From: a virus
IMG/VR virus record: IMGVR_UViG_3300037486_000582
Coordinates: 1-64,000 of that record
Length of the DNA stretch: 64,000 nt
Direction: 5' to 3' (one strand)
Below are positions 41,090-55,424 of the stretch, in pieces (within the stretch, counting starts at the first letter, position 1; each line of letters opens with the position of its first letter). The notes under the pieces are model-generated. The model searched no databases, was not told the origin of the DNA, and was given only the letters and a program-made list of their open reading frames with translations. The position numbers were made by a program, and so were the translations under genes.

Positions 41090-42022
41090 TCAGACCGCGA
41101 CCACTCCCGTCGCCTTCACGACCGCCGGCTCGTGCGCGAAGCGGAAGTCCACTCGCGCCGTGACGACGATGATGAAGACGCCCGCCGACACGTCGCGGTC
41201 GGTGTCGATGCGGATCTGACGCCACACGCCGAAGAGCATGTTGGCCGGGTCCGTCATCAGGACGACCGTCTCGTTCGTGCCGCCGCCCAGGTTGGTCGGG
41301 AACACGGGCACGCCCATGACCTCGATCCCCTGGAACGGCCGGGACTGGAGCCCCGTGACCTGCTCGTCGCCGAGCAGCGTGGCGCGGTCGCCGAGGTGCT
41401 CCTGGTAGTCGATGTCGGCCTCGTCCGCGGTGAGGAAGCGGAGGGTCCGCTTGTCCCGCCGGAACTCGGACGGCATCGTCTTCAGGATGTCCTTCAGCAC
41501 GGACCGCTGGAGCGTCGCCCCGCCCGCGAGCACGGTGTTCGTCACGGCGCGGACGATGAACCCGTTGAGCGTCTTCAGCAGGTCGTCGGTGGACGAGGTG
41601 TCGCCGTTGAACGCGAGGTCCTCCAGGTCGAGCCCGATGCGCTCGGCCATGGTCGCCCGCACGGTCGACTCGAACGTCCCGCGTTCGATGCTGTCCTCCA
41701 GTGCTTCGAAGCTGATGCGCGTTTCCGCCTTCACCAGCTGAGCGTCCAGCTCCACCTTGGACGTGTCGGGCACGGAGCGCTGGCCCAGAGGCAGCGACTG
41801 CGCCTCCGTTCCCTTGCGCAGCGCGCGGCTGCCGTACCGAATCTTCTCCCTGAGCTCCTTCGGCGCGTTCATGTCGACACGCGTCATCTGCGGCATCACG
41901 ACTGCCTGGTCGATTGCCAGCTGGATGAAGCGGTCGGCCTGGGCGGGCTCGAGAAGACCGCCGGGCGCGAGGTTGGCCAGGAGGAAGTCCGCCTTCTGGA
42001 CGATGTCTCTGTTGTCCTGCAT
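41090..42022 (-). CDS. Major capsid protein (HK97 fold)
   Basis: Start moved to ATG 42022; GGLLEPAQADRFI, LEDSIE, DLEDLAFNGD and MPSEFR motifs. Confidence 0.9.
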   Translation of the reverse strand: MQDNRDIVQKADFLLANLAPGGLLEPAQADRFIQLAIDQAVVMPQMTRVDMNAPKELREKIRYGSRALRKGTEAQSLPLGQRSVPDTSKVELDAQLVKAETRISFEALEDSIERGTFESTVRATMAERIGLDLEDLAFNGDTSSTDDLLKTLNGFIVRAVTNTVLAGGATLQRSVLKDILKTMPSEFRRDKRTLRFLTADEADIDYQEHLGDRATLLGDEQVTGLQSRPFQGIEVMGVPVFPTNLGGGTNETVVLMTDPANMLFGVWRQIRIDTDRDVSAGVFIIVVTARVDFRFAHEPAVVKATGVVAV

Positions 42023-42035
42023 GGCTCCTTCTCCC

Positions 42036-43448
42036 TCACATGATCCACGGTCCGCCGCGGCGCCCGCTGCGAGACCTGTCCGTCGAGCCGTCGCCCTTCC
42101 CCTGCGTCGGCGCCTCACTCCTGCTCGCCGGTGCCTCGGGCGCGGCGGCGAGCGTCCTCTCCATGGTGTCCAGCCGCTTCATGACGGCCGTCATCGGATC
42201 GTCGGTCGGGCCGTCCTTGGCCGCCTTGTCGGCGGTCGGGCCGGAACCGACGTTGCCCAGGTTGCCGCCCTCGCGGGCGGGCGGGCTCGGCTGCGTCTCG
42301 GCGGATCGCTTCGCCGTGTCGGCCGTCGCTGTGACCGGCGTCGCGGCGTCGGCCAGAGCAGCGCCCGGTGTCTCGTCGCCGGCCGTGCCCTCGGTCTGCT
42401 CCAGCATCGCGAAGATGGGGCGGAGCGCGGCGAGGACACGCATGAGGCGCGACGGGCCGACCGCCTTCGACACGGTCTCGAGCTCGTCGTCGGAAAGCCC
42501 GGTGAGCGACTTGGCGACCCCGGCCACCTGATTGCGGATGGACACGAGCTCGTCCGGGGTCGTCGCTTCGGCGATCCGCGTGATGGCCTGGGCGATCACA
42601 GCGAGCTTGTCACCTGCCTCGCTCCCGACCCGCGAGAGCTTGGTGTCCATCTCCTTGTGGGACTCCTGCTCCGCCGGAGCAGCCAGCACCGCCCCCGCCT
42701 CGGCGACGACCGGCGGAGCTACCGCCGTTGCTGTCTCCGTGGCCTTCTCGCTCGTCGCGCTCTCCTTCTCCATCTCGACGGCTCCGCTCGGGGCAGCTCC
42801 AGCCGTCGGCTGCGGATACCGCTCCGCCAGCGCGTTCAGTTGAGCTGCCAGGTTACGGACGGCAGCCAGGGTGGCACCGTCCAGGGTTTCCGCGCCGGAC
42901 GCGCGCTGCGCGATCTCGCTCGCCGTGGCCGCGATCGTGGAGAGCGCCTGCGCCACCGCGCCACCGGCCTTCTCCGCCATCGCCGCCTCTCCCGGCTCTG
43001 CTGCCGCGCCGTCGCTCATGGGCGAAGGATACCGCGAGAGCGCCCCGCGCAGAAGGTCCGAGATCGTCTGGACCTCGGTGGCCAGTTCCGCGGGGACCGG
43101 CTGCGCGTTCGCTTCCGCCGTCTCCTGCGCGCCGCGGATCATGTTGCCGATGGACACGAGGCGCTCCGTCGCCTCGGTGACGACGCGCATCAGCCCTTCC
43201 TTCACCGGCGTCGGGAGCGACAACTCGGCCTTGGCGGTCGGCTGCTCCTCGGCTGCCCTGCTGTCTCCCTCCATGGTCCCTCCGTGCTTCACCACTAGGA
43301 ATCGGCGACGGTTCGCAGCTCGGTCAACCAGCGAGACCTCCTCAACGAGTATCTCGCTGAGCCGGTGCTGTGCTTCCACTGGGTCCAGCCCGAGGAAGAT
43401 GCGCGCCACTTCCAGCGCGTGATCGAGCTTGCTGATGTCCACGAGCAC
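42036..43448 (-). CDS. Capsid scaffold-like protein with an N-terminal protease-type EVSLVDxxAN motif
   Basis: RLSEILVEEVSLVDRAAN followed by an Ala/Glu-rich helical region; immediately precedes the capsid gene. Confidence 0.7.
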   Translation of the reverse strand: MLVDISKLDHALEVARIFLGLDPVEAQHRLSEILVEEVSLVDRAANRRRFLVVKHGGTMEGDSRAAEEQPTAKAELSLPTPVKEGLMRVVTEATERLVSIGNMIRGAQETAEANAQPVPAELATEVQTISDLLRGALSRYPSPMSDGAAAEPGEAAMAEKAGGAVAQALSTIAATASEIAQRASGAETLDGATLAAVRNLAAQLNALAERYPQPTAGAAPSGAVEMEKESATSEKATETATAVAPPVVAEAGAVLAAPAEQESHKEMDTKLSRVGSEAGDKLAVIAQAITRIAEATTPDELVSIRNQVAGVAKSLTGLSDDELETVSKAVGPSRLMRVLAALRPIFAMLEQTEGTAGDETPGAALADAATPVTATADTAKRSAETQPSPPAREGGNLGNVGSGPTADKAAKDGPTDDPMTAVMKRLDTMERTLAAAPEAPASRSEAPTQGKGDGSTDRSRSGRRGGPWIM

Positions 43449-43459
43449 AGACTATACCC

Positions 43460-46400
43460 CTACGGAGCCTCAGGTCCAAGGGCTTCGCGCAACGCGGTTC
43501 CACCCATGCTGTAGCCGGTGAACGCGCCAGCCTTCACCGCAGCCCACACGTCGTCGTTCTTGACACGGGTGGCCAGGAACCACGTTCCCACGGGAAATGA
43601 CTCGCCGCCGTGCTCCTCGACGCGCTTGGAAAGGTAGCTCTCGATGGGGATGACGCCTTCCACGGGCTTCCCCTTGTGCATCACCTTCACCTTCCCGCCA
43701 AAGTGCTCCAGGAACGAATGAGCAGCCTTCTCGACCTCCTTCGCGCTGTAGACGTCGCCCTGCGCGTCGACCTCGTCTGGCACCAGAACGACGCCAAAGA
43801 CGTACCGCTCCTCTGTCTCGGGCGACTCGGCCTTCAGCAGCCGCACCGCGCGCTCGAGCTTGTGGAGCTTCGCGACGGGCTCGCCGCCGCGCACGAGCTC
43901 GCCGGGCCGGAGCAACCCGCGCACGTCCTCAGTCGACGACGGGGCGGCCCCGGGAATAATCTCGAGTGCCTCGGCCGGGCCGAACCACCTGACACGCCGC
44001 GGCGGCCCATCTTCCCAGAGGAGCTCCAGCAACTGGACCAAGATCGTGTCGCCGACGTTCGCGTCGAGCTTCTTGTTCCCGGTGCGCCCCACGGTGACGT
44101 AGGTCTTTCCGTCGTGCTCGACCGGCTCCGCCCACCCTGCGGCGTCACCCGCTGGGATCGGCCCCACGGCCCCGACGAAGTCGTAGACCCCGGGCGAGCC
44201 CTTCACCTCATGCCGGCCGACGACCAGCGCACGCAGCTCGCGTGTCAGCTTCACCTTCGCCCAGAGGTCGTTCTCTCCGCCAAGACTGTACGTGCTCCCG
44301 AACTGCTTGAGCAGCGCGCCTTCGCTCCCCGGCTGAGCCTTCGCCCATTCCATGCTGCGCACGAGCTGGCTTCTGGTCTTGGCCATGCGTCGCGGCGCGA
44401 GGATGAACCGCTCCCCGAGCTTCTGGCCTGCCCACCACCGCTCGAGCAGCCGCCGCCGCTGAGCCAACGGGACGGCCGTGAGGTTCCCTTGTGGACTGAG
44501 GTACAGCGCGTCGAAGACGACGAAGCGCAGGGCGCTGTCGTCGGCTGGCCCGGTCCCGCGAAAGCGCGCCAGCTCCCGCCGTGGCAGGAAGTTACCCTTG
44601 GCGTCCACGCCCATGATCTCGCCGTCGAGGATGAAGTTGCCTCCGACCTTCCGCAAGTCTGCCGTGAGCCCAGGAAGAACGGAGGAGAGGTCGCGCTTCC
44701 TGTCCTCCGTGAAGACAAGCACACCGCCGTCCTCCACGCCGGGAGCCACACCGGCGTCCCAGGACTCAGCAACGGCGCGGAAGCCGTTGTACTTGGGCTC
44801 GACCTGGACTCCGTCACGGACGAGCTGGTCCGTGAAGACGGTCCGCGCCGCGAGGTCGGCGTCGGTGAACGTGGACGTCTCGCGTTTCGCCGGCTTCATC
44901 GGCTGGAACAGGGCTGGCGGACGGAGCAACGTGCGGTCGCCGCCCTTGTCGTCGGTATCGTCGATGTCGGCCGGGTCCCACACCTGTGTTCCATCTGACT
45001 GGACGCGGAATCGCTTCTCGGCCGGCTCCACCGGAGTGCTGCTCACGGTGCCGTTCGCGAGCGCGTGGACGTGCGTGTTGCCGCGCAACGCCGGGCCGCC
45101 GGTGCGCCCAGCGTCGGCGAGGCCGTGGACGTGCGCCTGGCCGCCGCGTTCGGTTGTCGTAACCCCGCCGCCGGGCAGCCGGTGGCTGTGACCTTGTGCC
45201 TCCGTCTGCTTCGGAATGGCGCGCCGCGGGTCGGACCCCGGGCTGAACTGGAACAGGTCTGAGTCGACCTCCTCAGCGACGAGCGTGAACAATCCCTTGA
45301 GCCGCTGACCGCCGAGCCGGAACTTCAGGAACGCGCGCTGGGCGTCGAGGAGGTCGGCGCGACCGCTGTCGATCCGCTGGATGCCGGACGCCGTGTTCTT
45401 CGTATCGTTCAGCGCCAGCCCGGCGACGCGCGTCCCTGGAGCCACGTCGCCTTCGAAGTTGAGCAGCGCGTTGCCGGCCTCCTGTCTGACGCCGGCAATG
45501 ACCTCCTCACCCGAGAGCGGATCGCGCTGGAGCTGGAAGTCCCACACCCCGGAGCCGTCCGGTTTCCCCAGGACCAGGTGCCACACCTGACGACTCGGCG
45601 CCGCACGGACGACGGTCTGTCCCTTCCACCACTGCCAGAGCAGCGCGAAGGGCACGCGCTCCTGTTTCGCGACGGGCTCCGTCTCTTCTTCCTCCGGGTC
45701 GTACCCCTCTCGGAGAACCTTCCGCTCGCTCCTGCGGTACTGGAACTCCCCATCGAGGACGACGTTCTCCTCCGTGAAGAAGCGGGCGTCCACGAGCGCG
45801 TCTCGGATGCGCCGCGCCTCGGCCTCACTGTCCGCGAGCCAGAACCTGTACTCCCGCGGCGTCGCCTGCATGAGCGTCGTAGGCATCCCGCTCTGCCCAA
45901 GCGGGGGCATCGTCTCGTTGTCGACGGAGTGCCGGCGCAACACGCCGGGGAGCAGCACCTTGTTGAACCCGCCCGTCCAGAAGGTTTCGCCCTCCTGCGC
46001 GACGCCTTCCTCCATTGGCTGGTCCCCGCCTTCCAGCATCCGGAAGGTCAGCGTCCCACTGAACTTCGGGTCACCCGTGAGGAAGTACTCGTGCGAGAAC
46101 GGCTTCTGCAGTCCCCACTCCGCCTGCGGTGTCGCCACCTCGACGTAGACCCCGGGCTCGTTCCGCGTCGCCCCGACCCCGCCCGGCTCCACGACGACGT
46201 CGCCGAGGTCAAGCCAGACAGTCGGCTGCCGGCTCTTGGCCGCCGCGAAGATCCGGTCCGGGAGCATCATCGGCTTGGTGTAGCGGCTGCCGGCCACGTC
46301 GAAGGCGTCGGCAATGACGCGCGCCTCGGCAACCGTGTTGACCTCGGGGACGGCCCCAGCCTTCTGGAGCGCCATGGTCCAGCCGACCAGGAAGTCCTTC

Positions 46401-49135
46401 ACCTGCATTCGGAGGTCGGCGTGCAGCGTCTTCCCGCGGAAGTGGAACTGCATCACGGCCGGCCGCTTGCCGGGCGCGTCGGGCCAGTCTTGAAGCGGGT
46501 CGTCCTGCTTCGCTGTGAGTGCCATCTCCTTGACGGTTCGGTCCTCGTGCGGAACGAGGACCAGGTCGTACAAGGCGACGTGGTTCGTGTACGGGCCGCC
46601 CTGCCCCTCCGTGTGGAACTGCACCCGCTGAGAGAGCCGCGGCCCGAGCGCGCGTCCGAGGCGAAACTTGATGACGTGCTCCGTGTCCGCGTCGAACGGG
46701 CCACGAATCAGAAGGTCGATGTCGTTCTCGCTCTTACCCGCGTTGCAGACCGAGCCGACCAGGTAGACGGCCGGCATCCGCAACGCCATCGGCTTCGACA
46801 GGGCGCCGAGAACCTCGGTCAGCGCGACCGGGTCGTCGGCATGGACAGCGGCCCCTCCGGGATAGATGGGGGCGAACTGCCCGTCTCCATCCACGTCGCC
46901 CTTCGACATGCCCCGCCGGAGCAACGCGGTCGTCTCCTCCGCGAGCGGGTCGACCTCGACGGTCTGCACGTTCCGGCGCTCGAGCTCGCGGAGCAGCATG
47001 ATGTGGGCGTTGACCACGTCCTCCCGCGTGACGCCTTCCGCCCTGGTCGTGCGCGGAGGGAAGGCTCGGGCGAACAGCCTGTGAAGCTCCCTGTCCATGG
47101 AGATGAGCTGCCCGTCCGGCTCCGTCGCGAGCGCCTCCGGGCTCGGGTCGGCGACGAACTCCTGAATCGCCTTGAGCGTCCTGTCGCGAAGGGCATCGTC
47201 GATGGTCAACTGCCTGGACTTCTCGACGTCCCTGTCGAAGTCCACCGTGGCGCCGAACCGCCGGCCGCCGGGCGGCTGCTTCAGCCGAAGCGGTGGCTCG
47301 AACAGCACGACCAGGTTCAAGGGCAGGTACCAGATGCTCTGCTCGGTGGCGAACTCCCTGGCCGAGAACTCGTCGACTCCGGCCCGCTGTTCCGCCGTGA
47401 GCTGCGCCATCGAGTCGATCTGCACCGGGTCGTCCTGAGCAACGACAGCCCAGACGTAAGCTCCGTCGAAGTCCGCTGGCGCGACCTCGTTGACGAGCGC
47501 CTGGGGCTGGCCGACGCGGGTCGTGCGCCGCCGCCTGGAGAGCAGCCCGGCCGTCTGCCCAGCCCGCAGCCTTGCGATGAAGTGCTTCGGGTCCGGCACC
47601 TTGAGCGCCGGAAGCTCTCCGCGCGGCGGCTCGGCCTGCCACACCATGACCGGAACGAGCCCGCGCGACGTGATGACCGCCGCTCCAAGTTCCTCGATGT
47701 CGCCGGACTGGGCAAGGGAACAGACCGCCGGGTCCAGGAACGCTGCCTTCCGCGCCTCGCGAACGACGTCCGCCGCGAGGTCGACGTGCGCGCCCTGGGC
47801 ACGCCCCGCAGGGGCAGCCCGAAGCTGAAGCGGTGGGCTGAACGACCGGACGACTGTGGCCGGGATGTAGAAGAGGCTCTCCGCCTTGGCGAAGTACGCC
47901 TTCGTCTGCTCCGCGACGTGAGCAGCGCGGCCGCCGAGGGCTTCGACGGAAGCCACGCGCTCCGCGTCCCCAAGGGTAGCGACTGCCCAGACGAACGAGT
48001 CGGAGAAGCCCAGCGGCTCCAACTCGTTCACGAGCGCCTGCTGGACCCCGGTGCGCCCGCGCATCGCCGTCGAGGAGAGAACGCCGACAGGCAAGCCCTG
48101 GCGTGCACGCTCGAGCAGGAACCGCGGGTTGGGCACACGCAGCGTCGGGAAGGAGCCGGATTCCGCCATGAAGACCTGGACGTCTCGAACGACGACCTGT
48201 GGGCCAGTCGGAACGTTCGTCTCCAGGGGTTCCGGGAAGGCGGCGACAACCTTGACCGGCCAAGCGTACAGCGGAGCAGCACACCAAGACGGCTGCGCCC
48301 CGCACCATTCGGCGCGGATGGCCTGCGTGATCCTGTGCTCGTCTTCGCGGGCAGCGAACTGCTCATCCGAGAGCTCCGCGACGGTGCCAAGTTCAACGAC
48401 GCCGAGCGCTCGCCTCCCGTTGAGCAGCACGTACCGCGCCTCTCCGATGTCGAGCGGGCGGCTCTTGACGAGCAACGTCTTCTCCCCGGACAGGATGGCC
48501 TCGGCCATGGCCATCGGAGAGACGGCAAGCCCAACGGTCGGAAGATCGTCGTCCTGCTTGCCGAGGCCGACGACGACCCCGGGATGGACCGCTTCGGACA
48601 ACGCGCGCAATGCGGAACGCGCAAGGCTCGTCAGGACGGTCGGGCCGAATCGCAGCGTGTGCGTGTGCTCGCCGTCCATCACCGTTCGCGCGCCGGCGAG
48701 CGCGTGCGGGTGAAGCCCGGCCGTCTCGGTGATCAGTTCGACGCCGTCGCCGAGCGCCACGACGTGGCGGTGCCCGCTTCCAGCCGGAGCAGCCGCCCCG
48801 TCCACGATCTGGTGGGCGTGCGGTCCATCGCTGTTCGTCACGAGCATCGCCCCGGCCGGAAGCGTAACCCGTTCGCCGCCGGCCAGGCCGACGATGGTGG
48901 TCCCGCCGAGGTGGAAGACGTGCTGATGGAGCCCGCCCAGGCCGGTCTCCGTCGTGGACGATACGTCGTGGACGTGGGCGCCGGAGGCACACTCGAGATC
49001 GCCGAGCCTGTGCATCATGTCGATCTGCGTGCGCTCCGCGTCCTTCGCGCGTTCAGCGAGCAGCGCCTCGGCGTTCTTCAGCGCCACGTCCATACGACGC
49101 TCGAGCTCCTCTCGCGGTGTGCAGGCAGCCGTCAT
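43460..49135 (-). CDS. Multidomain protein: HxH repeats, 3 ASCH/PUA-like repeats, Pol-beta-type nucleotidyltransferase, 2 LigD phosphoesterase-like domains, ATP-dependent ligase, XkdF-like prohead protease
   Basis: Start moved to ATG 49135 (ATGA overlap), 1,891 aa. Motifs: GSV...NDIDLL; QFHFRGKTLHADLR; EPKYNGFR, LDGEI, FVVFDAL, EGALLK, WAKVK; VFGVVLVPDEVDAQGD...TGYSMGG. Confidence 0.85.
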   Translation of the reverse strand: MTAACTPREELERRMDVALKNAEALLAERAKDAERTQIDMMHRLGDLECASGAHVHDVSSTTETGLGGLHQHVFHLGGTTIVGLAGGERVTLPAGAMLVTNSDGPHAHQIVDGAAAPAGSGHRHVVALGDGVELITETAGLHPHALAGARTVMDGEHTHTLRFGPTVLTSLARSALRALSEAVHPGVVVGLGKQDDDLPTVGLAVSPMAMAEAILSGEKTLLVKSRPLDIGEARYVLLNGRRALGVVELGTVAELSDEQFAAREDEHRITQAIRAEWCGAQPSWCAAPLYAWPVKVVAAFPEPLETNVPTGPQVVVRDVQVFMAESGSFPTLRVPNPRFLLERARQGLPVGVLSSTAMRGRTGVQQALVNELEPLGFSDSFVWAVATLGDAERVASVEALGGRAAHVAEQTKAYFAKAESLFYIPATVVRSFSPPLQLRAAPAGRAQGAHVDLAADVVREARKAAFLDPAVCSLAQSGDIEELGAAVITSRGLVPVMVWQAEPPRGELPALKVPDPKHFIARLRAGQTAGLLSRRRRTTRVGQPQALVNEVAPADFDGAYVWAVVAQDDPVQIDSMAQLTAEQRAGVDEFSAREFATEQSIWYLPLNLVVLFEPPLRLKQPPGGRRFGATVDFDRDVEKSRQLTIDDALRDRTLKAIQEFVADPSPEALATEPDGQLISMDRELHRLFARAFPPRTTRAEGVTREDVVNAHIMLLRELERRNVQTVEVDPLAEETTALLRRGMSKGDVDGDGQFAPIYPGGAAVHADDPVALTEVLGALSKPMALRMPAVYLVGSVCNAGKSENDIDLLIRGPFDADTEHVIKFRLGRALGPRLSQRVQFHTEGQGGPYTNHVALYDLVLVPHEDRTVKEMALTAKQDDPLQDWPDAPGKRPAVMQFHFRGKTLHADLRMQVKDFLVGWTMALQKAGAVPEVNTVAEARVIADAFDVAGSRYTKPMMLPDRIFAAAKSRQPTVWLDLGDVVVEPGGVGATRNEPGVYVEVATPQAEWGLQKPFSHEYFLTGDPKFSGTLTFRMLEGGDQPMEEGVAQEGETFWTGGFNKVLLPGVLRRHSVDNETMPPLGQSGMPTTLMQATPREYRFWLADSEAEARRIRDALVDARFFTEENVVLDGEFQYRRSERKVLREGYDPEEEETEPVAKQERVPFALLWQWWKGQTVVRAAPSRQVWHLVLGKPDGSGVWDFQLQRDPLSGEEVIAGVRQEAGNALLNFEGDVAPGTRVAGLALNDTKNTASGIQRIDSGRADLLDAQRAFLKFRLGGQRLKGLFTLVAEEVDSDLFQFSPGSDPRRAIPKQTEAQGHSHRLPGGGVTTTERGGQAHVHGLADAGRTGGPALRGNTHVHALANGTVSSTPVEPAEKRFRVQSDGTQVWDPADIDDTDDKGGDRTLLRPPALFQPMKPAKRETSTFTDADLAARTVFTDQLVRDGVQVEPKYNGFRAVAESWDAGVAPGVEDGGVLVFTEDRKRDLSSVLPGLTADLRKVGGNFILDGEIMGVDAKGNFLPRRELARFRGTGPADDSALRFVVFDALYLSPQGNLTAVPLAQRRRLLERWWAGQKLGERFILAPRRMAKTRSQLVRSMEWAKAQPGSEGALLKQFGSTYSLGGENDLWAKVKLTRELRALVVGRHEVKGSPGVYDFVGAVGPIPAGDAAGWAEPVEHDGKTYVTVGRTGNKKLDANVGDTILVQLLELLWEDGPPRRVRWFGPAEALEIIPGAAPSSTEDVRGLLRPGELVRGGEPVAKLHKLERAVRLLKAESPETEERYVFGVVLVPDEVDAQGDVYSAKEVEKAAHSFLEHFGGKVKVMHKGKPVEGVIPIESYLSKRVEEHGGESFPVGTWFLATRVKNDDVWAAVKAGAFTGYSMGGTALREALGPEAP

Positions 49136-49479
49136 GTCGTCACCTTCGGCCCCTCCGGTGGACCCCAAGCCCGCTCCGGAGCGGGCGGTTCCCACACGGT
49201 TCCGTCCAGCGTCGCACGCAGCGCCCGCGGAAGCGAGTCCAGCGCACGCTGGGTGCTGTAGTGGAGGTCCACGCGGAGCTTCGCGAACCAGTCGTAGCAG
49301 ATGTTCGCCCTCCGCTTCACCTCGGCCTCCGTCGGAGCAACCGAGACGGTGACGATGAGGCTCGCCGCCCGGTCCTCCACGAAGCTGTTGCGAACGACCC
49401 GCCCGACCGCGGCAAAGACACGGCGCAGAGAGGCCTCGTCCTTCACTAGAGCGACCAGGAACTCGCGCTTCGTTGACAT
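49132..49479 (-). CDS. Hypothetical protein
   Basis: Start moved to ATG 49479 after GGGGAAGG; 115 aa. Confidence 0.6.
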   Translation of the reverse strand: MSTKREFLVALVKDEASLRRVFAAVGRVVRNSFVEDRAASLIVTVSVAPTEAEVKRRANICYDWFAKLRVDLHYSTQRALDSLPRALRATLDGTVWEPPAPERAWGPPEGPKVTT

Positions 49480-49490
49480 CCTTCCCCTCG

Positions 49491-50735
49491 TTACAGGACA
49501 GGGACCGTCGTGCACCGGCAGCTCGCGTGAGCGGGAGGCACCATCGCCCCGCCACCGCTCCCCGCCCCGCCACCGACCGGCCTGTAGACGCCGACTCGGT
49601 CGACGACCCCGAACCCGCGCTGCTGAATCTGTGCGACGGGCGGACCGAGCGGACCGCCGCGCGGAGAGACATGAATTTGGTCCCCGACGACCCTGTACCA
49701 CGCCGACATGTTGACCGCGGCTTCAGGGTCGGGGCTCCGCAGGGCGGCTTCGGTGCGCGTCAGCGACGACTCGACGGGGAACTGCTGGCCGTGTAGCCAA
49801 CGGCACGTCTCACACGTCCGCTCGTCGAGGACAGCCTCCCACGTGTAGGAGTCGATCTCGGCCACGCCGTAACCAACCATCTGTCCGTAGGACCGGGCCT
49901 GGGCGACGGCCGCACTCGCGACGGCGCGGTAGTAGTTCTCGTCCCGTCCAAGAGCAGCACCGCGCATAGCCACGGCGAGGTCTTGTGCGATTTGCCTGTA
50001 GCCGAGCCCCTCGGCGGCACCCTCGCCAACGATGCGCCGAGCAGCCCGGGAGAACCGCTCACTTCGGCGAGCGAACTCGTCGGAGATGAAGACGGACCCG
50101 TTCCGTCCGATTCTCCGGGCGAGCTCCCGTTCGACCGGACTGAACGTGAAGGCCAACCCGCGAGCAGCCGTCGCCCCCAACGCTGACCTCTGGGCGACGG
50201 ACGCCGCAACCTGCTGAAGCTGGCCGAGCGCACCTTCTCGGAAGTCCCGGCTCCCCGGGATGTCCCGTACTGCAGTCGCCAGCATGGCGATGGCGTTGTC
50301 GACCTGAGCCGCGGTCATGGTTGGCCACGGTCGGCGGAGCTGGTCCAGCGCACGACGAAGGGTCCTCCGTGCTGACGCACGGCTGGTGGCCCGGAGAGCG
50401 CGTTCCAAGCGTTCGATGGCCAACGCAAACGCACGACGAGACAGCGGGAGGTCCGCCTTCTCGACGGTCACCGTGTCCTGCTGGAACGGCCAGAGCCAGA
50501 GGCCACTCTGCGTCTGGATGGCGCCACGGTAGACGAGGACATCGCGCTCGGTCGCCTCGGCCAACGCCTTCGCAGCCGGCCCGACCTCCCGGGCATCGGC
50601 GATGCGATGCAGCAGGCCGATCTCTGGAATCGCAATTGCGACCGCACCGCAGGCCGTCAGGGCAGGCGGGTCCGCGAACAGGACGCCCCGTGGGTCGCCC
50701 ACCTCGGTCCAGGGCGGTCCGAGCAACGCGGTCAT
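49491..50735 (-). CDS. Minor head protein, MuF / SPP1 gp7 family
   Basis: WEAVLDERTCETC and PPAHASCRCT motifs. Confidence 0.9.
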   Translation of the reverse strand: MTALLGPPWTEVGDPRGVLFADPPALTACGAVAIAIPEIGLLHRIADAREVGPAAKALAEATERDVLVYRGAIQTQSGLWLWPFQQDTVTVEKADLPLSRRAFALAIERLERALRATSRASARRTLRRALDQLRRPWPTMTAAQVDNAIAMLATAVRDIPGSRDFREGALGQLQQVAASVAQRSALGATAARGLAFTFSPVERELARRIGRNGSVFISDEFARRSERFSRAARRIVGEGAAEGLGYRQIAQDLAVAMRGAALGRDENYYRAVASAAVAQARSYGQMVGYGVAEIDSYTWEAVLDERTCETCRWLHGQQFPVESSLTRTEAALRSPDPEAAVNMSAWYRVVGDQIHVSPRGGPLGPPVAQIQQRGFGVVDRVGVYRPVGGGAGSGGGAMVPPAHASCRCTTVPVL

Positions 50736-50738
50736 CGC

Positions 50739-51194
50739 TCAGACGGCGTCCCTGGGCATCGGAGCTCCGCCGGTCGCGCAGAGCACAACGTCCGTCGCCC
50801 CGGCCGCCACGTAGGCCGTGATACGGAACGCGACCAGGTGTCCGTCCACCGGAACCTGCGCGCTGGCGGCCAGCCCGGTCAAGCCACCGACCGACGTGAG
50901 CGTCTTCCAGCGCCGTCCGAGCGGAGCAGCGGCGTCCGGCGTCGCGACCATTGGCAGGACGTCGACGGACCCGCCGTCCACTGGTGCCCCGGTCGGGCCA
51001 CGGAAGTCGGCGATCAGCCTGACGCTCAGCCACTCTCGAGCATCGAGGATGACGACGTCGGGGCCGAGCTCACCCGCGTTCCTGTTGTCCGGTGTCCAGA
51101 GACCCGACACCGGAGCGTCCGGCGCGTTCCGCGGAGCCCGGACGTCTGTCTTCGCACTCGGACTGTAGAGCCTACGCTTCGTGGGAGCTGTCAT
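50739..51194 (-). CDS. Hypothetical protein
   Basis: 151 aa between portal and MuF genes. Confidence 0.6.
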   Translation of the reverse strand: MTAPTKRRLYSPSAKTDVRAPRNAPDAPVSGLWTPDNRNAGELGPDVVILDAREWLSVRLIADFRGPTGAPVDGGSVDVLPMVATPDAAAPLGRRWKTLTSVGGLTGLAASAQVPVDGHLVAFRITAYVAAGATDVVLCATGGAPMPRDAV

Positions 51195-53058
51195 CTGCGT
51201 CCTCCTCGTGCCCGAGCGGGTTCGAAGCCGCCCGAGCAGCCGCGGCGTCCAGTGCGGCCAGCGCGCTGTCGCCTTCCGTGTGCGTCCTGCGTCGGCCGAG
51301 GGCGAGCCCTTGGTGCGACAAGTTCACGAGGTCTTGCGCCTCGGCGACGTCGAGCCCGGCGACCGCCGGTGGCATGTCCTCCGGTGCGCCCTCCACCGGA
51401 GGGGCGAAGCCGGCGAGCGTGAGCTGGATCGGCTGCTTCGCCCACGGCAGGTCCAGCGGGTCGAGCTCGTGGCCGAGGATGTCGCTCGAAAGGTAGCGTG
51501 CTTCGTTCGGGGTGATTGCCCCGACCTTCGCCAGATCGAGGATGACAGCCGCCACCCGTTCCGGGTCGCGGGTCTGCGGCCCGAGCGAGCGGAAGGTCCA
51601 CATTCGGATGTCGAGCATCGGAAGGATGACCCTGTTCAGCCAGGAGTCGAACTCCTTCCGCTCGGGCTCGAACACCTGCTCGTCGGCAAAGCGCAAACTC
51701 GCGTCGGCCGTGGACTTGTTGAAGTCGCGCACGTCACCGCGGAGCAGCCGGGGCAGGCGGAAGGAGCTGCCGATCTTGTCCACGTTCCGCTCGTCGTACT
51801 TCTGGAACATGGCGTCGCCCTTCTGCACGTCGCCGAGGCGTTCGAACGTGAGCCGCGGGTGCTCGTGCGGCGACATCGGGTCGCCTTCGTCGTCGGCCTC
51901 GATGACCATGATCTTGTGGAAGTTCTCGCGCCCCTTGATGTGGTCGCGGATGAACGTCTCGATCCTGGTCACGCTCTCCGAGCTGAGCCGCCCGCCGGAC
52001 ACGAGCAGCGCCAGCGGCGGAATGGCCTTGTTGTCGAAGTAGGCGAAGTTGACCTCGTCCGACGCCCGGCTGCCGAGGACCGCGAGCAGGTTCCCGATCC
52101 AGCGCGGGACACCGTAGGGCTCGCCAGTCCTGTGAATGCGGAAGTGGACCATCTCGGTCGCCTGGTGCTCGCGACCGCGGGTCTGCTCCGCGAAGACCGC
52201 CAGGTTCGCATAGATGCGCCCAGTCTCTCTGGAGACGACCCGCGGGTCGCCAAACTGCTTGAACCAGATGATCTTTGAACCGACCGCCTGGACGTAGCGG
52301 CGGAAGAACTTCGGCTGGTAGATGACCTCCCAGCCAAGCCCGAGGTGGACGCGGTCGGGTACCATGACAGGAATCTCGTCCAGCGCGGTGCAGCGGACGT
52401 GTGTCGGCGGCACCCCAACGAAGCGACTCACCTCCCCGACGCGGTTCCGAAGGATCTCCCAGAAGCCGTTGCCGACGATCTCAAGGTCCTGTCTCGTGTG
52501 GCGGCGAAGCGTCTCGAAACTCCCGTCTGGGTAGACGCCTTCGAAGAACGAGTCGAGCCGCGCCTTCTCGAACCGCGCTCGGATGCGGAGTGCCTCGACG
52601 GTCTTCGCGACCACCTCGTCCGTCGGAAGGTACTGCTCTGGGTCCTTGACCCGGCTCGCCTGTGCCAGCACGTCCGCGTCGTCCGCCGCGTCTCGGAGGT
52701 CGTCGCTCGCTGCCGTCGATGCCTCCGCCGCGCGCACGCGCTCGACCCACATGGCGTCGCGGACCTTCTCCTCCGCCTCCTCGCCGAACAGGTCGAACCG
52801 AGCAGCGAAGCGGTAGCCGAGGCCGTCGATGTTGGTGACGTACGCCTGGACGTTCTGCGGAAGGGCGCTGCTGTTTTCCCACATCCGCAGAAGGTCGATC
52901 GGATTGTACGGCGGTTCGAGGACACCGGCCTCGCGGAAGATGGACTGAAGCTGGTCCGTGTCCTCGCGAATGGAGACCGGAGCGTGGACGGCTTGTCCGA
53001 GCAGCCGCGCCTTCAGCGTCGCGCGTGGTTCCTTCGGTTCTTCCTGTGCGTCGGCCAT
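51172..53058 (-). CDS. Portal protein (PBSX-like)
   Basis: GNGFWEI, YGVPRW, YFDNKAIP, FRLPRLLRG and ITPNEAR motifs. Confidence 0.9.
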   Translation of the reverse strand: MADAQEEPKEPRATLKARLLGQAVHAPVSIREDTDQLQSIFREAGVLEPPYNPIDLLRMWENSSALPQNVQAYVTNIDGLGYRFAARFDLFGEEAEEKVRDAMWVERVRAAEASTAASDDLRDAADDADVLAQASRVKDPEQYLPTDEVVAKTVEALRIRARFEKARLDSFFEGVYPDGSFETLRRHTRQDLEIVGNGFWEILRNRVGEVSRFVGVPPTHVRCTALDEIPVMVPDRVHLGLGWEVIYQPKFFRRYVQAVGSKIIWFKQFGDPRVVSRETGRIYANLAVFAEQTRGREHQATEMVHFRIHRTGEPYGVPRWIGNLLAVLGSRASDEVNFAYFDNKAIPPLALLVSGGRLSSESVTRIETFIRDHIKGRENFHKIMVIEADDEGDPMSPHEHPRLTFERLGDVQKGDAMFQKYDERNVDKIGSSFRLPRLLRGDVRDFNKSTADASLRFADEQVFEPERKEFDSWLNRVILPMLDIRMWTFRSLGPQTRDPERVAAVILDLAKVGAITPNEARYLSSDILGHELDPLDLPWAKQPIQLTLAGFAPPVEGAPEDMPPAVAGLDVAEAQDLVNLSHQGLALGRRRTHTEGDSALAALDAAAARAASNPLGHEEDADDSSHEA

Positions 53059-53477: not shown

Positions 53478-53740
53478 CCTTCCCCGGGCTCCGTGTCGTC
53501 GTCGCGGCCGCTCGCGCCAGACACGCTCACTTCCGAGCAGCCAGCACGCTGCAGCATCAGGTCGGCGGCGCACTCGGCCGAGCAGACGTGGAAGTCTCCA
53601 GCCCACCCTGGGAGACAGGTGGCGGTCCACGGCGACGGGAGCTGCTCGCCGTGCGCGATACCGTCGAACTGGGCCGCCCGCCCGCAGGCGTCGCAGACGA
53701 CCAGACAGTGACCTTGGAAGCCCACGCCAGGAGCATACAC
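53474..53740 (-). CDS. Small zinc-finger protein
   Basis: CDAC...HVCSAEC; start uncertain. Confidence 0.55.
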   Translation of the reverse strand: MYAPGVGFQGHCLVVCDACGRAAQFDGIAHGEQLPSPWTATCLPGWAGDFHVCSAECAADLMLQRAGCSEVSVSGASGRDDDTEPGEG

Positions 53741-53785
53741 GGACCTTGACGCCGGCGCAGCAGGAACGACACAATGAGAGCTCCT

Positions 53786-53831
53786 CCGGGGTCCACGGTG
53801 CCCTTCCCCCCCAGGGCACCGTGGACCCCGG
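53786..53831. repeat. Perfect 19-bp inverted repeat with an 8-nt loop
   Basis: CCGGGGTCCACGGTGCCCT-TCCCCCCC-AGGGCACCGTGGACCCCGG, 6 nt after the terminase stop. Confidence 0.9.
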
Positions 53832-53837
53832 TTTCGC

Positions 53838-55424
53838 TCATCCGATGGCGCGAACTCCAGACGACGACGATGAAGACGCCCGCCGGCCGGTGTCGCGACG
53901 GAGTTTCCGCTCGTACATGCGCGCCGCTTCCCGCGCGATCCAGGAGGCCATGAGCCGGTCGCCGGTGTGACCTTGCGGGTCGTAGGCCAGCATGTCGTCG
54001 ATCCAGTCGGCGACGCCCCTGGCGACGCGCCGGGAACCGACTTCGCAGGGGATGAGCCACCGGGAAGCCGCCATCTCCGCGGCGAGGCTCTCGACGCCGT
54101 ACTCCGGGGACAGCTTGTTGCGGCCCGTGGTGAAAGCGCGGACGCGCATCCCAGGAGCGCGTTCCCTGACCCACTGGACGAGGAAGTCCTGAGCAGCGTT
54201 GTTCTCCACGACGACCGTCGAGCGGAAGCGTTCGTTCACCGAGACGACCCGGTCGATGATCTCCGGGCCGCTCCACCGCCCCGCCTGAACCTCCAGCACT
54301 TGGCGCATCCCATTTGGCCAGAGCAGCAGCGTGAACAAGGCGCTCTTGCCGGACCCCGGCCGTGCGCTGATCGCGAGGTCGACGCCGGTGATGGTCATGA
54401 AGCCGGCCGGCATCCCGCCCATCTCGAGCAACTCCTCCGTCAGACTCATCTCGGCGGCGAACTCGGGGTCGCGCTCCGCGATGTCTTGCAGACTGCTGTA
54501 CGTCGCGAACCCTTCGCCGAGCGCCAGGCACTGCTCGATCCACGACCGCTGGAACCGCGCGGTGCTCTCGTCGCGCGGCTGGCAGAGCATCTGACGAGAG
54601 AACTCGATCGGCCCGAGCACCTGGGTTCGGACGTGCTCGATCCGGTCCAGCGGCCACCGCTCCGGCCAGGCCAGCTTGCCGTCCTGGTCCAAGACGGGAA
54701 ACCGCATCGAGTGCCACCCCTGGCGCTCCAAGTTGTGGGCCATGTCCTTCGGGTGCCAAGCGTTCGTCAGGAGGCAGACCCACGCACCCTTCGCGAGCCG
54801 CGGGAAGGCGGAAGCGCGAATCCACTCCTCGATCTTGTCCCGCTGGTAGTTGGTGCGTGTGTTGTTCTCGGTCAGGACGTCGTCGATGATGAGCCCGTCG
54901 AGCCGCGCGCCCTGGATGGTTCCTCCCTCCGGCGAGTAGGCTTGCAGGGACGGGTCCTTGATGCCGCCCGGACGCTCCACTTCCAACGAAACGTCGGTCC
55001 AGAGCGTGCCGCGACGAAGGTCTGGGAAGACCTGGTGGAGTATCTGGTTCTCGATGATGTGCTGCTGCGCGGTGCGGATGATCTTCTTTGCCTGGCTCTG
55101 CGTCGCGGACAGAACTGCGTACCGCCGACGCTGGTCCTTCCCGAGCAGCCAGAGGACGCGGGCGATGGCGAGCTGCTGTGTCTTTCCGCTCTCGGGGAAC
55201 GCCCAGATGACCACGTTGCGGTAGCGCTCGATGGCGTAGTGCCAGGCTGCCTGGAAGGGCTTCACCTGGATGTGGTTCCCCGTCTCCTCGTCCCGGAGGA
55301 CCATCTCGCAGAACGCGGGACAGTCCCGCCGCGCCAGACGGAGCATCGCCGCCCACGCAAGCTGCGCCTGCTCACCGATACCATCCGTCGGCGCGTCGCG
55401 CGCCACGCCCGTTCCAATGCCCAT
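53838..55424 (-). CDS. terL: Terminase large subunit
   Basis: Walker A FPESGKT, Walker B LIIDD, nuclease motifs ITGVDLA, VENNAAQ and GDRLMA; start could be 55424, 55436 or 55466. Confidence 0.92.
   Translation of the reverse strand: MGIGTGVARDAPTDGIGEQAQLAWAAMLRLARRDCPAFCEMVLRDEETGNHIQVKPFQAAWHYAIERYRNVVIWAFPESGKTQQLAIARVLWLLGKDQRRRYAVLSATQSQAKKIIRTAQQHIIENQILHQVFPDLRRGTLWTDVSLEVERPGGIKDPSLQAYSPEGGTIQGARLDGLIIDDVLTENNTRTNYQRDKIEEWIRASAFPRLAKGAWVCLLTNAWHPKDMAHNLERQGWHSMRFPVLDQDGKLAWPERWPLDRIEHVRTQVLGPIEFSRQMLCQPRDESTARFQRSWIEQCLALGEGFATYSSLQDIAERDPEFAAEMSLTEELLEMGGMPAGFMTITGVDLAISARPGSGKSALFTLLLWPNGMRQVLEVQAGRWSGPEIIDRVVSVNERFRSTVVVENNAAQDFLVQWVRERAPGMRVRAFTTGRNKLSPEYGVESLAAEMAASRWLIPCEVGSRRVARGVADWIDDMLAYDPQGHTGDRLMASWIAREAARMYERKLRRDTGRRASSSSSSGVRAIG

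Follow-up and report, generated by a model that had tools for sequence, protein, structure and literature searches.

The window analysed here, a whole stretch of 64,000 nucleotides, is the first 64 kb of a 108,577-bp single viral contig (IMG/VR record IMGVR_UViG_3300037486_000582). Its head module contains a gene for a long polyprotein in which a nucleotidyltransferase (NTase), two phosphoesterase (PE) folds of the LigD type and an ATP-dependent ligase precede a C-terminal prohead protease, and the next gene encodes a scaffold-like protein. The polyprotein is read here as a capsid-targeted polyvalent polyprotein with a LigD-like cargo for healing and sealing DNA ends, a reading that, with the delivery mechanism included, was given about an even chance of being right. 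The following features carry this reading (residues are those of the polyprotein unless stated otherwise):

43460..49135, minus strand, polyprotein gene, 1,891 amino acids plus stop, ATG at 49135
46538..46828, minus strand, minimal Pol-beta-type nucleotidyltransferase, residues ~770-866
45950..46483, minus strand, PE1, first LigD-type 3'-phosphoesterase fold, metal motif retained, residues ~885-1062
45227..45658, minus strand, PE2, second LigD-PE fold with the metal ligands lost, residues ~1160-1303
44201..44998, minus strand, conserved pre-ligase segment and ATP-dependent ligase nucleotidyltransferase domain, residues ~1380-1645
43916..44200, minus strand, OB-like C-terminal ligase region, unconfirmed, residues 1646-1740
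43463..43822, minus strand, XkdF-type prohead serine protease domain, residues 1772-1891, with His1820 and Ser1876
about 43287-43382, minus strand, N-terminal motif of the scaffold protein (its residues 23-54), predicted site of protease docking or release

The PE domains were studied with family alignments and with AlphaFold models of two overlapping stretches, residues 759-1305 (predicted local distance difference test, pLDDT, 81.8) and residues 495-1065 (pLDDT 77). In the model without PE2, PE1 superposed on 3p4h_A with Z 13.6 and a root mean square deviation (rmsd) of 1.8 Å, covering 113 of 118 residues, and the match of PE1 to 3n9b_A had Z 11.1 and rmsd 2.6 Å over 120 residues. The first seven Foldseek matches of both models were all LigD PE structures, with probability 1.0 for PE1. 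When PE1 was compared by hhalign with 16 myxobacterial LigD PE domains, used as the canonical set, residues Q896, H898, H905, D907 and R909 fell on the Q.H..H.D.R site (E 3.6e-5). We take this metal and phosphate site of LigD PE to consist of Gln40, His42, His48, Asp50 and Arg52 (P. aeruginosa numbering). Among the relatives H905 and D907 were both present in 38 of 38, and H898 and R909 in 37 of 38 each; also H1015-E1016-Y1017 is conserved on a later strand of PE1. The segment Q896-R909 lies at 46409-46450, where an initial annotation of this DNA had placed its LigD 3'-phosphoesterase-like motif, and the motif was borne out by both fold and profile. PE1 stayed below the curated cut-offs (Pfam LigD_N E 0.092, 1 of 15 members), TIGR02777 gave on the polyprotein only E 0.085, falling on PE2, and Pfam LigD_N had zero matches in the six-frame translation of the genome.

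The second copy, which the same annotation had called degenerate, has the LigD PE fold with its metal ligands replaced. The PE2 model matched the archaeal LigD PE 3p4h_A with Z 15.9 and rmsd 2.0 Å over 115 residues, and the Pseudomonas LigD PE 3n9b_A with Z 14.5 and rmsd 2.3 Å over 117 residues. Profile comparison of PE2 with the canonical set gave E 1.7e-5 over 115 columns, and the search against the PDB gave 3p43 at 2e-4. The ligand positions in this lineage are Q/W/V/H/V, which does not amount to a set of catalytic ligands; H..H.D.R is retained in PE2 of some unfused relatives.

The ligase domain was matched by Pfam PF01068 (6e-16, residues 1440-1629; 59.3 bits with a cut-off of 26.2), and its profile matched PDB ligases at 7e-14. 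The best NCBIfam matches were LigD-type ligases of non-homologous end joining (NHEJ; 2e-13). Conserved motif residues are K1448 of motif I (codon at 44792-44794), D1504 and E1506 of motif III, F1541 and D1542 of motif IIIa, E1605, G1606 and K1610 of motif IV, and K1627 and K1629 of motif V. The earlier claim of a complete ligase motif set with an OB-like tail stood for the Lys of motif I and for motifs III, IIIa, IV and V, motif I being KxNG instead of KxDG. Of the tail only the pattern was recovered: residues 1646-1740 resemble a ligase OB region (GRTGN, RWFGP), and hhalign comparison with LigD OB regions was not significant.

The NTase is characterised by residues G794, S795, D805, D807 and D857, with G794-D807 at about 46715-46756. 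The motif G[SG]x9 [NG]DxD is conserved in 36 relatives, 31 of which also have the third D/E, and the best non-PE fold matches were all minimal nucleotidyltransferases of the MNT/HI0073 type. These matches were weak: 8xeh_E (Z 5.7, 3.3 Å over 72 residues), 1no5_B (Z 5.7, 3.3 Å over 71 residues) and 1wot (Z 5.7, rmsd 3.0 Å over 82 residues). The Foldseek probability for the NTase fold was 0.85. Motif conservation and weak fold matches together uphold the Pol-beta-type NTase motif of the initial annotation.

One relative, P0010, has an intein with a LAGLIDADG-like endonuclease region in its NTase domain, between the GGPF and T.HV.LYDL segments, and the same protein bears a Dam-type methylase.

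The protease was identified by Pfam PF14550 (Peptidase_S78_2; 8e-26, residues 1772-1883, 91 bits with a cut-off of 24, profile positions 8-124 of 126) and by phrog_3017 (1e-29). His1820 and Ser1876 are conserved in the relatives, and the C-terminal XkdF-like protease read from the sequence earlier is thereby established. No other prohead protease was found in the head module. A catalytic Ser in the next gene was considered and rejected, as both Ser1876 and His1820 lie within the polyprotein and are conserved; the motif at the start of the scaffold is a post-protease motif.

This scaffold motif is nearly invariant (EEVSLVDRAANRRRFLVVK, scaffold residues about 33-54). In psiM100 ORF12, where an XkdF-type protease and a scaffold form a single chain, the corresponding motif ISIVDKPAVPKAKYLSIKR stands after the protease and before an acidic helical region (hhalign E 1.6e-3). 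As the motif of psiM100 directly follows the protease, the protease/scaffold junction has been split into two genes in the present lineage. The polyprotein ends about 10 residues past the protease, and an 11-nt spacer separates it from the scaffold gene. Fusion of the two proteins by frameshift or readthrough was rejected, since the scaffold frame has a TAG stop 3 nt ahead of the scaffold GTG. The scaffold motif had no tblastn match in cultured phages.

Complex prediction for the protease domain with scaffold residues 1-150 gave an ipSAE of 0.62, compared with 0.00 for the best control. Among solved complexes, 58 of 80 came up to this ipSAE mark, as did 2 of 110 mismatched pairs; these counts are rough because own alignments were supplied. 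The docking runs shared at least 68% of contacts, with a partner pLDDT of at least 50, and the predicted interface joins scaffold residues 23-51 with protease strand 1779-1783, the His1820 region and residues 1870-1887, including Ser1876. By this predicted docking the scaffold could recruit the cargo-protease chain. Each of the low-pLDDT linkers of the polyprotein includes a Lys that 12 or more of 15 relatives retain (K639, K876, K1139/K1157, K1374 and K1768), and these residues are candidate cleavage sites for self-processing.

The polyprotein architecture was found in 15 protein clusters, 35 IMG/VR loci and two Myxococcales contigs from metagenome-assembled genomes, the homologues being 37-80% identical. 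More than 20 contigs share the gene order portal, MuF, polyprotein, scaffold, capsid. An assembly chimera, which the initial annotation had named as a possible undoing of its proposal, was rejected, as the same architecture recurs in these 15 clusters and in more than 20 independent viral contigs. Profile searches with NTase-PE1-PE2 retrieved 1,926 clusters at 50% identity, 703 of them with E ≤1e-30.

Domains were mapped with custom models on 159 representatives. NTase, PE1, PE2, ligase and protease were present together in 59 of the 159, and the same set without the protease in 53. The ligase domain occurred in 126 and the protease in 90 representatives, and the protease was always the last domain, on both cassette orders. 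One or two D12-class N6-adenine DNA methyltransferase domains (Dam-type) were present in 35 (about 22%), and several relatives without the ligase domain still have NTase, PE and protease. In the unfused form, which the archaeal virus ANMV-1 also has, the ligase follows the NTase and precedes PE1 and PE2. In all eight locus groups examined the unfused cassette was located in the head module, placed after the large terminase (TerL) and portal genes or directly ahead of a separate protease and capsid gene. The link between cassette and head morphogenesis is therefore independent of the fusion and of the phage lineage. The catalytic residues of PE1, NTase and ligase are kept in 25-38 relatives, down to about 27% identity.

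The cargo enzymes are thus probably loaded into the capsid; we infer that they are ejected with the DNA and have a role in its repair. That the protease acts as a packaging tag, as the initial annotation had proposed, is supported indirectly by the occupation of the protease slot, the last-domain position, the head-module cassette and the docking prediction; the part of the proposal concerning action in the new host goes beyond these observations. During head assembly the protease domain would dock on the conserved N-terminal motif of the scaffold and so bring the whole 205-kDa chain into the procapsid. The protease would then cut the disordered Lys-bearing linkers, freeing domain-sized enzymes that would be retained in the head and leave it with the DNA at infection. 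Before phage gene expression PE1 would trim blocked 3' ends, the NTase would add nucleotides, and the ligase would seal breaks or join the genome ends, while PE2 and the ASCH domains would serve as nucleic-acid-binding modules. DNA is favoured over RNA as the substrate because the ligase matches DNA/NHEJ ligase profiles, the fused methylases are DNA methylases and a 5'-kinase was not found. In its most specific form the proposal is only tentative, and somewhat doubtful: a virion-borne end-joining kit in no need of Ku or host ligase, with the ligase possibly pre-adenylylated, in which the scaffold motif from the split junction recruits and positions the cargo-protease and the genome is mended before expression. 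Every step beyond domain identity and genomic association is one that we infer.

Several observations weigh against packaging and end repair as the role of the polyprotein. Presence in virions and ejection are predictions from gene and model data, and the predicted docking may reflect only the halves of a chain that is single elsewhere; as halves of one chain tend to pass such a test, the docking denotes likeness to the cis arrangement and not proven binding. PE1 has RQPxxW (Q970, W974) at the position of LigD DHPxxY, and equivalents of His84 and Tyr88 are lacking, as judged from manual alignment only. The NTase fold match is weak (Z 5.7), with zero Pfam NTase family matches. Motif I of the ligase is KxNG, not KxDG, and Asn1450 is invariant in the protease-fused lineage; eight unfused relatives keep KxDG. 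The motif I Asp matters for catalysis by the Chlorella virus ligase, but not for LigIV (PMC6035275). The relatives are all metagenomic, and in a 50,697-record collection the cassette was found in no cultured phage. Nor were a 5'-kinase, Ku or an archaeo-eukaryotic primase (AEP) type polymerase found, the AEP-type domain being absent from the Pfam and NCBIfam matches of the polyprotein and Ku from the genome. An integrase, looked for as support for circularisation, was not found either, and with neither Ku nor integrase found the idea of circularisation has no extra support. Finally, the polyprotein ligase is the only DNA ligase found in the 108-kb genome, and it could simply be the replication or recombination ligase of the phage.

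With no second ligase found in the genome, it is possible that the enzymes act in the producing cell or at packaging, sealing nicks and trimming ends of replicated or concatemeric DNA, and are fused into the head operon only for timing, dosage or location at the procapsid. An NAD-dependent ligase was not found in the complete genome, and a head-module location is as compatible with action at the packaging site as with delivery. This explanation was nevertheless considered unlikely, since one would not expect the ligase of replication to be joined to a protease that becomes part of the procapsid and acts inside it, several of the relatives keep NTase, PE and protease without any ligase, and the frequent co-fusion of Dam methylases, together with the precedent of polyvalent proteins, points to incoming DNA. 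Less probable still, and rather improbable on the whole, is delivery of a kit that heals and seals host tRNAs, or other RNAs, after cleavage by anticodon nucleases or HEPN-type defence RNases, in the way of T4 Pnkp and Rnl1. RNA binding was the function first predicted for ASCH domains, with one ASCH protein being a ribonuclease (fold matches 5guq and 9kyf), minimal NTases partner HEPN RNases (fold matches 8xeh and 7ae2), and the non-canonical motif I has a parallel in T4 Rnl2, where a His takes this place. According to work of the Shuman laboratory, LigD PE reportedly acts next to ribonucleotides, which would also suit RNA repair. The protein has no polynucleotide 5'-kinase domain, however, and one would be needed for the 5'-OH ends left by metal-independent RNases; moreover, no RNA-ligase family was among the matches of the ligase, which were to DNA/NHEJ profiles, and the methylases fused in 22% of the relatives act on DNA.

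Two further explanations leave the catalytic cassette with a different purpose or with none. In a counter-defence set, directed against nucleotide signals or proteins instead of polynucleotide ends, PE1 would break down immune messengers, cyclic or 2'-5'-linked, and the MNT-like NTase would attach a nucleotide to a protein of the host, which agrees with the PE fold being that of a phosphodiesterase and with the view of Iyer et al. that polyvalent minimal Pol-beta NTases are protein-modifying. It was held to be very unlikely: the partnership with a ligase in 126 of the 159 representatives and the conserved PE2 binding copy would be left unexplained, and evidence specific to this explanation was not found. 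The lowest probability, a very slight one, was given to the upstream domains being mainly structural, parts of an internal head or core protein in which the enzyme folds are relics. Large internal head proteins do occur in other phages, such as phiKZ and SPN3US, and the active site of PE2 has already been lost. The catalytic residues of PE1, NTase and ligase are, on the other hand, kept over the whole identity range of the relatives, and the NTase of one relative contains an intein, an element that typically occupies conserved functional sites.

Packaging and delivery of polyvalent phage proteins, with a C-terminal assemblin-like peptidase expected to process the chain during assembly, were predicted by Iyer et al. 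2017 (PMC5512222), and the general strategy is thus already published. The present polyprotein shows the features by which such proteins are recognised: several unrelated catalytic domains in one giant chain, a gene located among the head genes of a portal-terminase phage, and an assemblin-like peptidase at the C-terminus. Also the Dam-type methylases in its relatives are shared with the polyvalent proteins (PMC5512222). The differences concern mainly the cargo, since ATP-dependent DNA ligase, LigD PE and ASCH are not named in the text of PMC5512222, and the Pol-beta NTases treated there are interpreted as protein modifiers in firmicute conjugative elements. Furthermore, MuF is a separate gene in this phage.

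Bacterial LigD (3n9b, 3p4h, 1vs0) likewise combines a 3'-phosphoesterase of the same fold, an ATP-dependent ligase and a nucleotide-adding enzyme in one chain, and the Gln-His...His-Asp-Arg site of its PE is kept in PE1. The nucleotide-adding enzyme is a minimal Pol-beta-type NTase in the polyprotein, whereas the POL of LigD is of the archaeo-eukaryotic primase type. The polyprotein differs also by its two PE barrels, of which one is inactive, by KxNG as motif I and by RQPxxW in place of DHPxxY. It is viral, encoded in a head operon and fused to a protease, and Ku was not found.

The closest parallel to the protease-scaffold arrangement was ORF12 of the Methanothermobacter phage psiM100, which shares the XkdF-type protease, the motif [IV]S[IL]VD..A...[FY]L..K and the acidic helical scaffold region. 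In psiM100 protease, motif and scaffold form one chain, whereas here the chain is split and the motif opens the next gene, and the protease bears about 1,770 residues of N-terminal cargo. Other protease-scaffold fusions are lambda C/Nu3, P2 gpO and herpesvirus UL26.

Among packaged phage proteins, IPI-III and Alt of T4 and Dar of P1 enter the procapsid during assembly, undergo trimming by its prohead protease, are ejected with the DNA and act before phage expression. They reach the head by a short N-terminal targeting peptide or, with Dar, by ordered interactions, instead of the covalent protease anchor proposed here, and they are a nuclease inhibitor, an ADP-ribosyltransferase and a methylase-helicase, instead of a repair kit. 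The mycobacteriophages Omega and Corndog reportedly encode Ku and use the LigD of the host to circularise their genomes, as is said of them in work by Pitcher et al. from 2006. The likeness lies in NHEJ-type end joining at the start of infection; Omega and Corndog bring Ku and borrow LigD, whereas here ligase, PE and NTase would be brought and no Ku was found.

A literature search on virion-packaged ligase or LigD-PE in phages gave nothing relevant, and a ligase/LigD-PE/NTase cargo was not found in the papers searched. Should packaging and ejection of the cargo prove true, infection by many uncultured phages, and by some archaeal viruses, would bring the viruses' own enzymes for healing and sealing DNA ends into the cell, either to withstand attack by restriction, CRISPR or exonucleases or for genome closure independent of the host. 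The split protease/scaffold junction offers a concrete mechanism, proposed here, for loading foreign proteins into capsids. The about 700 strongly matching protein clusters amount to a large family of compact enzymes (ligase, phosphoesterase and NTase) that is unstudied, with unusual active-site variants (KxNG, RQPxxW and the paired active and inactive PE).

The neighbouring genes identified in the window were the following:

53557-55356, minus strand, 599-aa open reading frame (ORF) upstream of the portal gene, at the position expected for the large terminase
51172..53058, minus strand, portal protein (phrog_12, 8e-29; Pfam PF04860)
49491..50735, minus strand, MuF-like minor head protein (Pfam PF04233, 1.6e-9)
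49132..49479, minus strand, conserved 115-aa ORF between MuF and the polyprotein, with homologues at the same location in 16 related loci
42036..43448, minus strand, scaffold-like protein, helical and Ala/Glu-rich
41090..42118, minus strand, major capsid protein of the HK97 fold family (phrog_1623, 1e-81; Pfam PF05065)

The order of the head module is thus portal, MuF, small ORF, polyprotein, scaffold and capsid, all on the minus strand. With the thresholds applied, neither PHROGs nor Pfam gave a family for the 599-aa ORF. The initial annotation had placed a 1,891-aa ORF between MuF and scaffold; the ORF itself was confirmed, while on the MuF side the 115-aa ORF intervenes. The stop of the 115-aa ORF and the start of the polyprotein overlap in an ATGA, an arrangement suggestive of translational coupling, and searches of Pfam and PHROGs with the 115-aa ORF matched no family. 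In one related locus (L039) the 115-aa ORF shares an open frame with the end of MuF.

The polyprotein frame is open further upstream on the minus strand, to 49672. This extension is rich in Arg and Gly and overlaps the conserved small ORF, which is in another frame. The longer ORF (ATG at 49672, 2,070 aa) was rejected, because the extension is compositionally non-coding and overlaps both the conserved small ORF and the MuF end. Homologues start near the ATG at 49135, a few residues ahead of the same N-terminal motif. On account of these homologue starts and of the overlap of the extension with the conserved 115-aa ORF, 43460-49135 was accepted as the gene.

The contig has a direct repeat of 176 bp at its ends (1-176 and 108402-108577; 175 of 176 positions identical, one mismatch). 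Completeness estimated by CheckV was 100%, and the IMG/VR class of the record is 'linear'. This is probably a complete genome, whose repeated ends are a short terminal repeat or else the overlap of a circular assembly.

The remaining domains of the polyprotein were delimited as follows:

48611..49018, minus strand, N-terminal HxH repeat module, residues ~40-175, present in 6 of 15 relatives
48131..48553, minus strand, 'ASCH_A', a variable domain resembling ASCH only in its motif, residues ~195-335
47696..48118, minus strand, R1, paralogue of R2, residues ~340-480 (hhalign of R1 with R2, probability 98%, E 9e-14)
47216..47623, minus strand, R2, ASCH/PUA-like domain, residues ~505-640, conserved across the family
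46901..47173, minus strand, helical domain with a conserved RED..NA motif, residues ~655-745
45752..45949, minus strand, conserved helical linker domain, residues 1063-1128, with motifs MPPLGxSxMP and RDALV and pLDDT >90
45020..45223, minus strand, second HxH repeat stretch, variable, residues ~1305-1372

The fold of R2 matched 6kir_A (Z 9.6, 3.4 Å over 115 residues) and 5guq_A (Z 9.2, 3.4 Å over 121 residues), and Foldseek gave ASCH matches at probability 1.0; Pfam ASCH was not matched. R1 is taken as ASCH-like because it is a paralogue of R2. For ASCH_A the hhalign match with R2 was weak (E 0.005), and searches of Pfam and PHROGs matched nothing in the ASCH_A and R1 regions. One related phage has an ASCH_A-like domain (E 3e-10) fused to the N-terminus of its portal protein (L018:2977-5382), a fusion that, judged from the domain match, is a second link of accessory modules to the capsid interior.

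The helical domain has the invariant residues E705, D706, N709 and A710, its motif opens the fourth helix, and its fold matches were generic helical only. An interpretation as HEPN, based on R-x6-H spacing, was not adopted, as the His is replaced in several relatives and the fold matches are generic.

The N-terminal HxH module is weakly YmaF-like (Pfam YmaF E 0.085, Atlas lead 0.76); these were weak leads only, and YmaF was not accepted as the identity of the repeats. The G.H.H repeats number seven at the N-terminus and three ahead of the ligase, with position and number varying among the relatives, and from their sequence pattern these stretches may bind metal.

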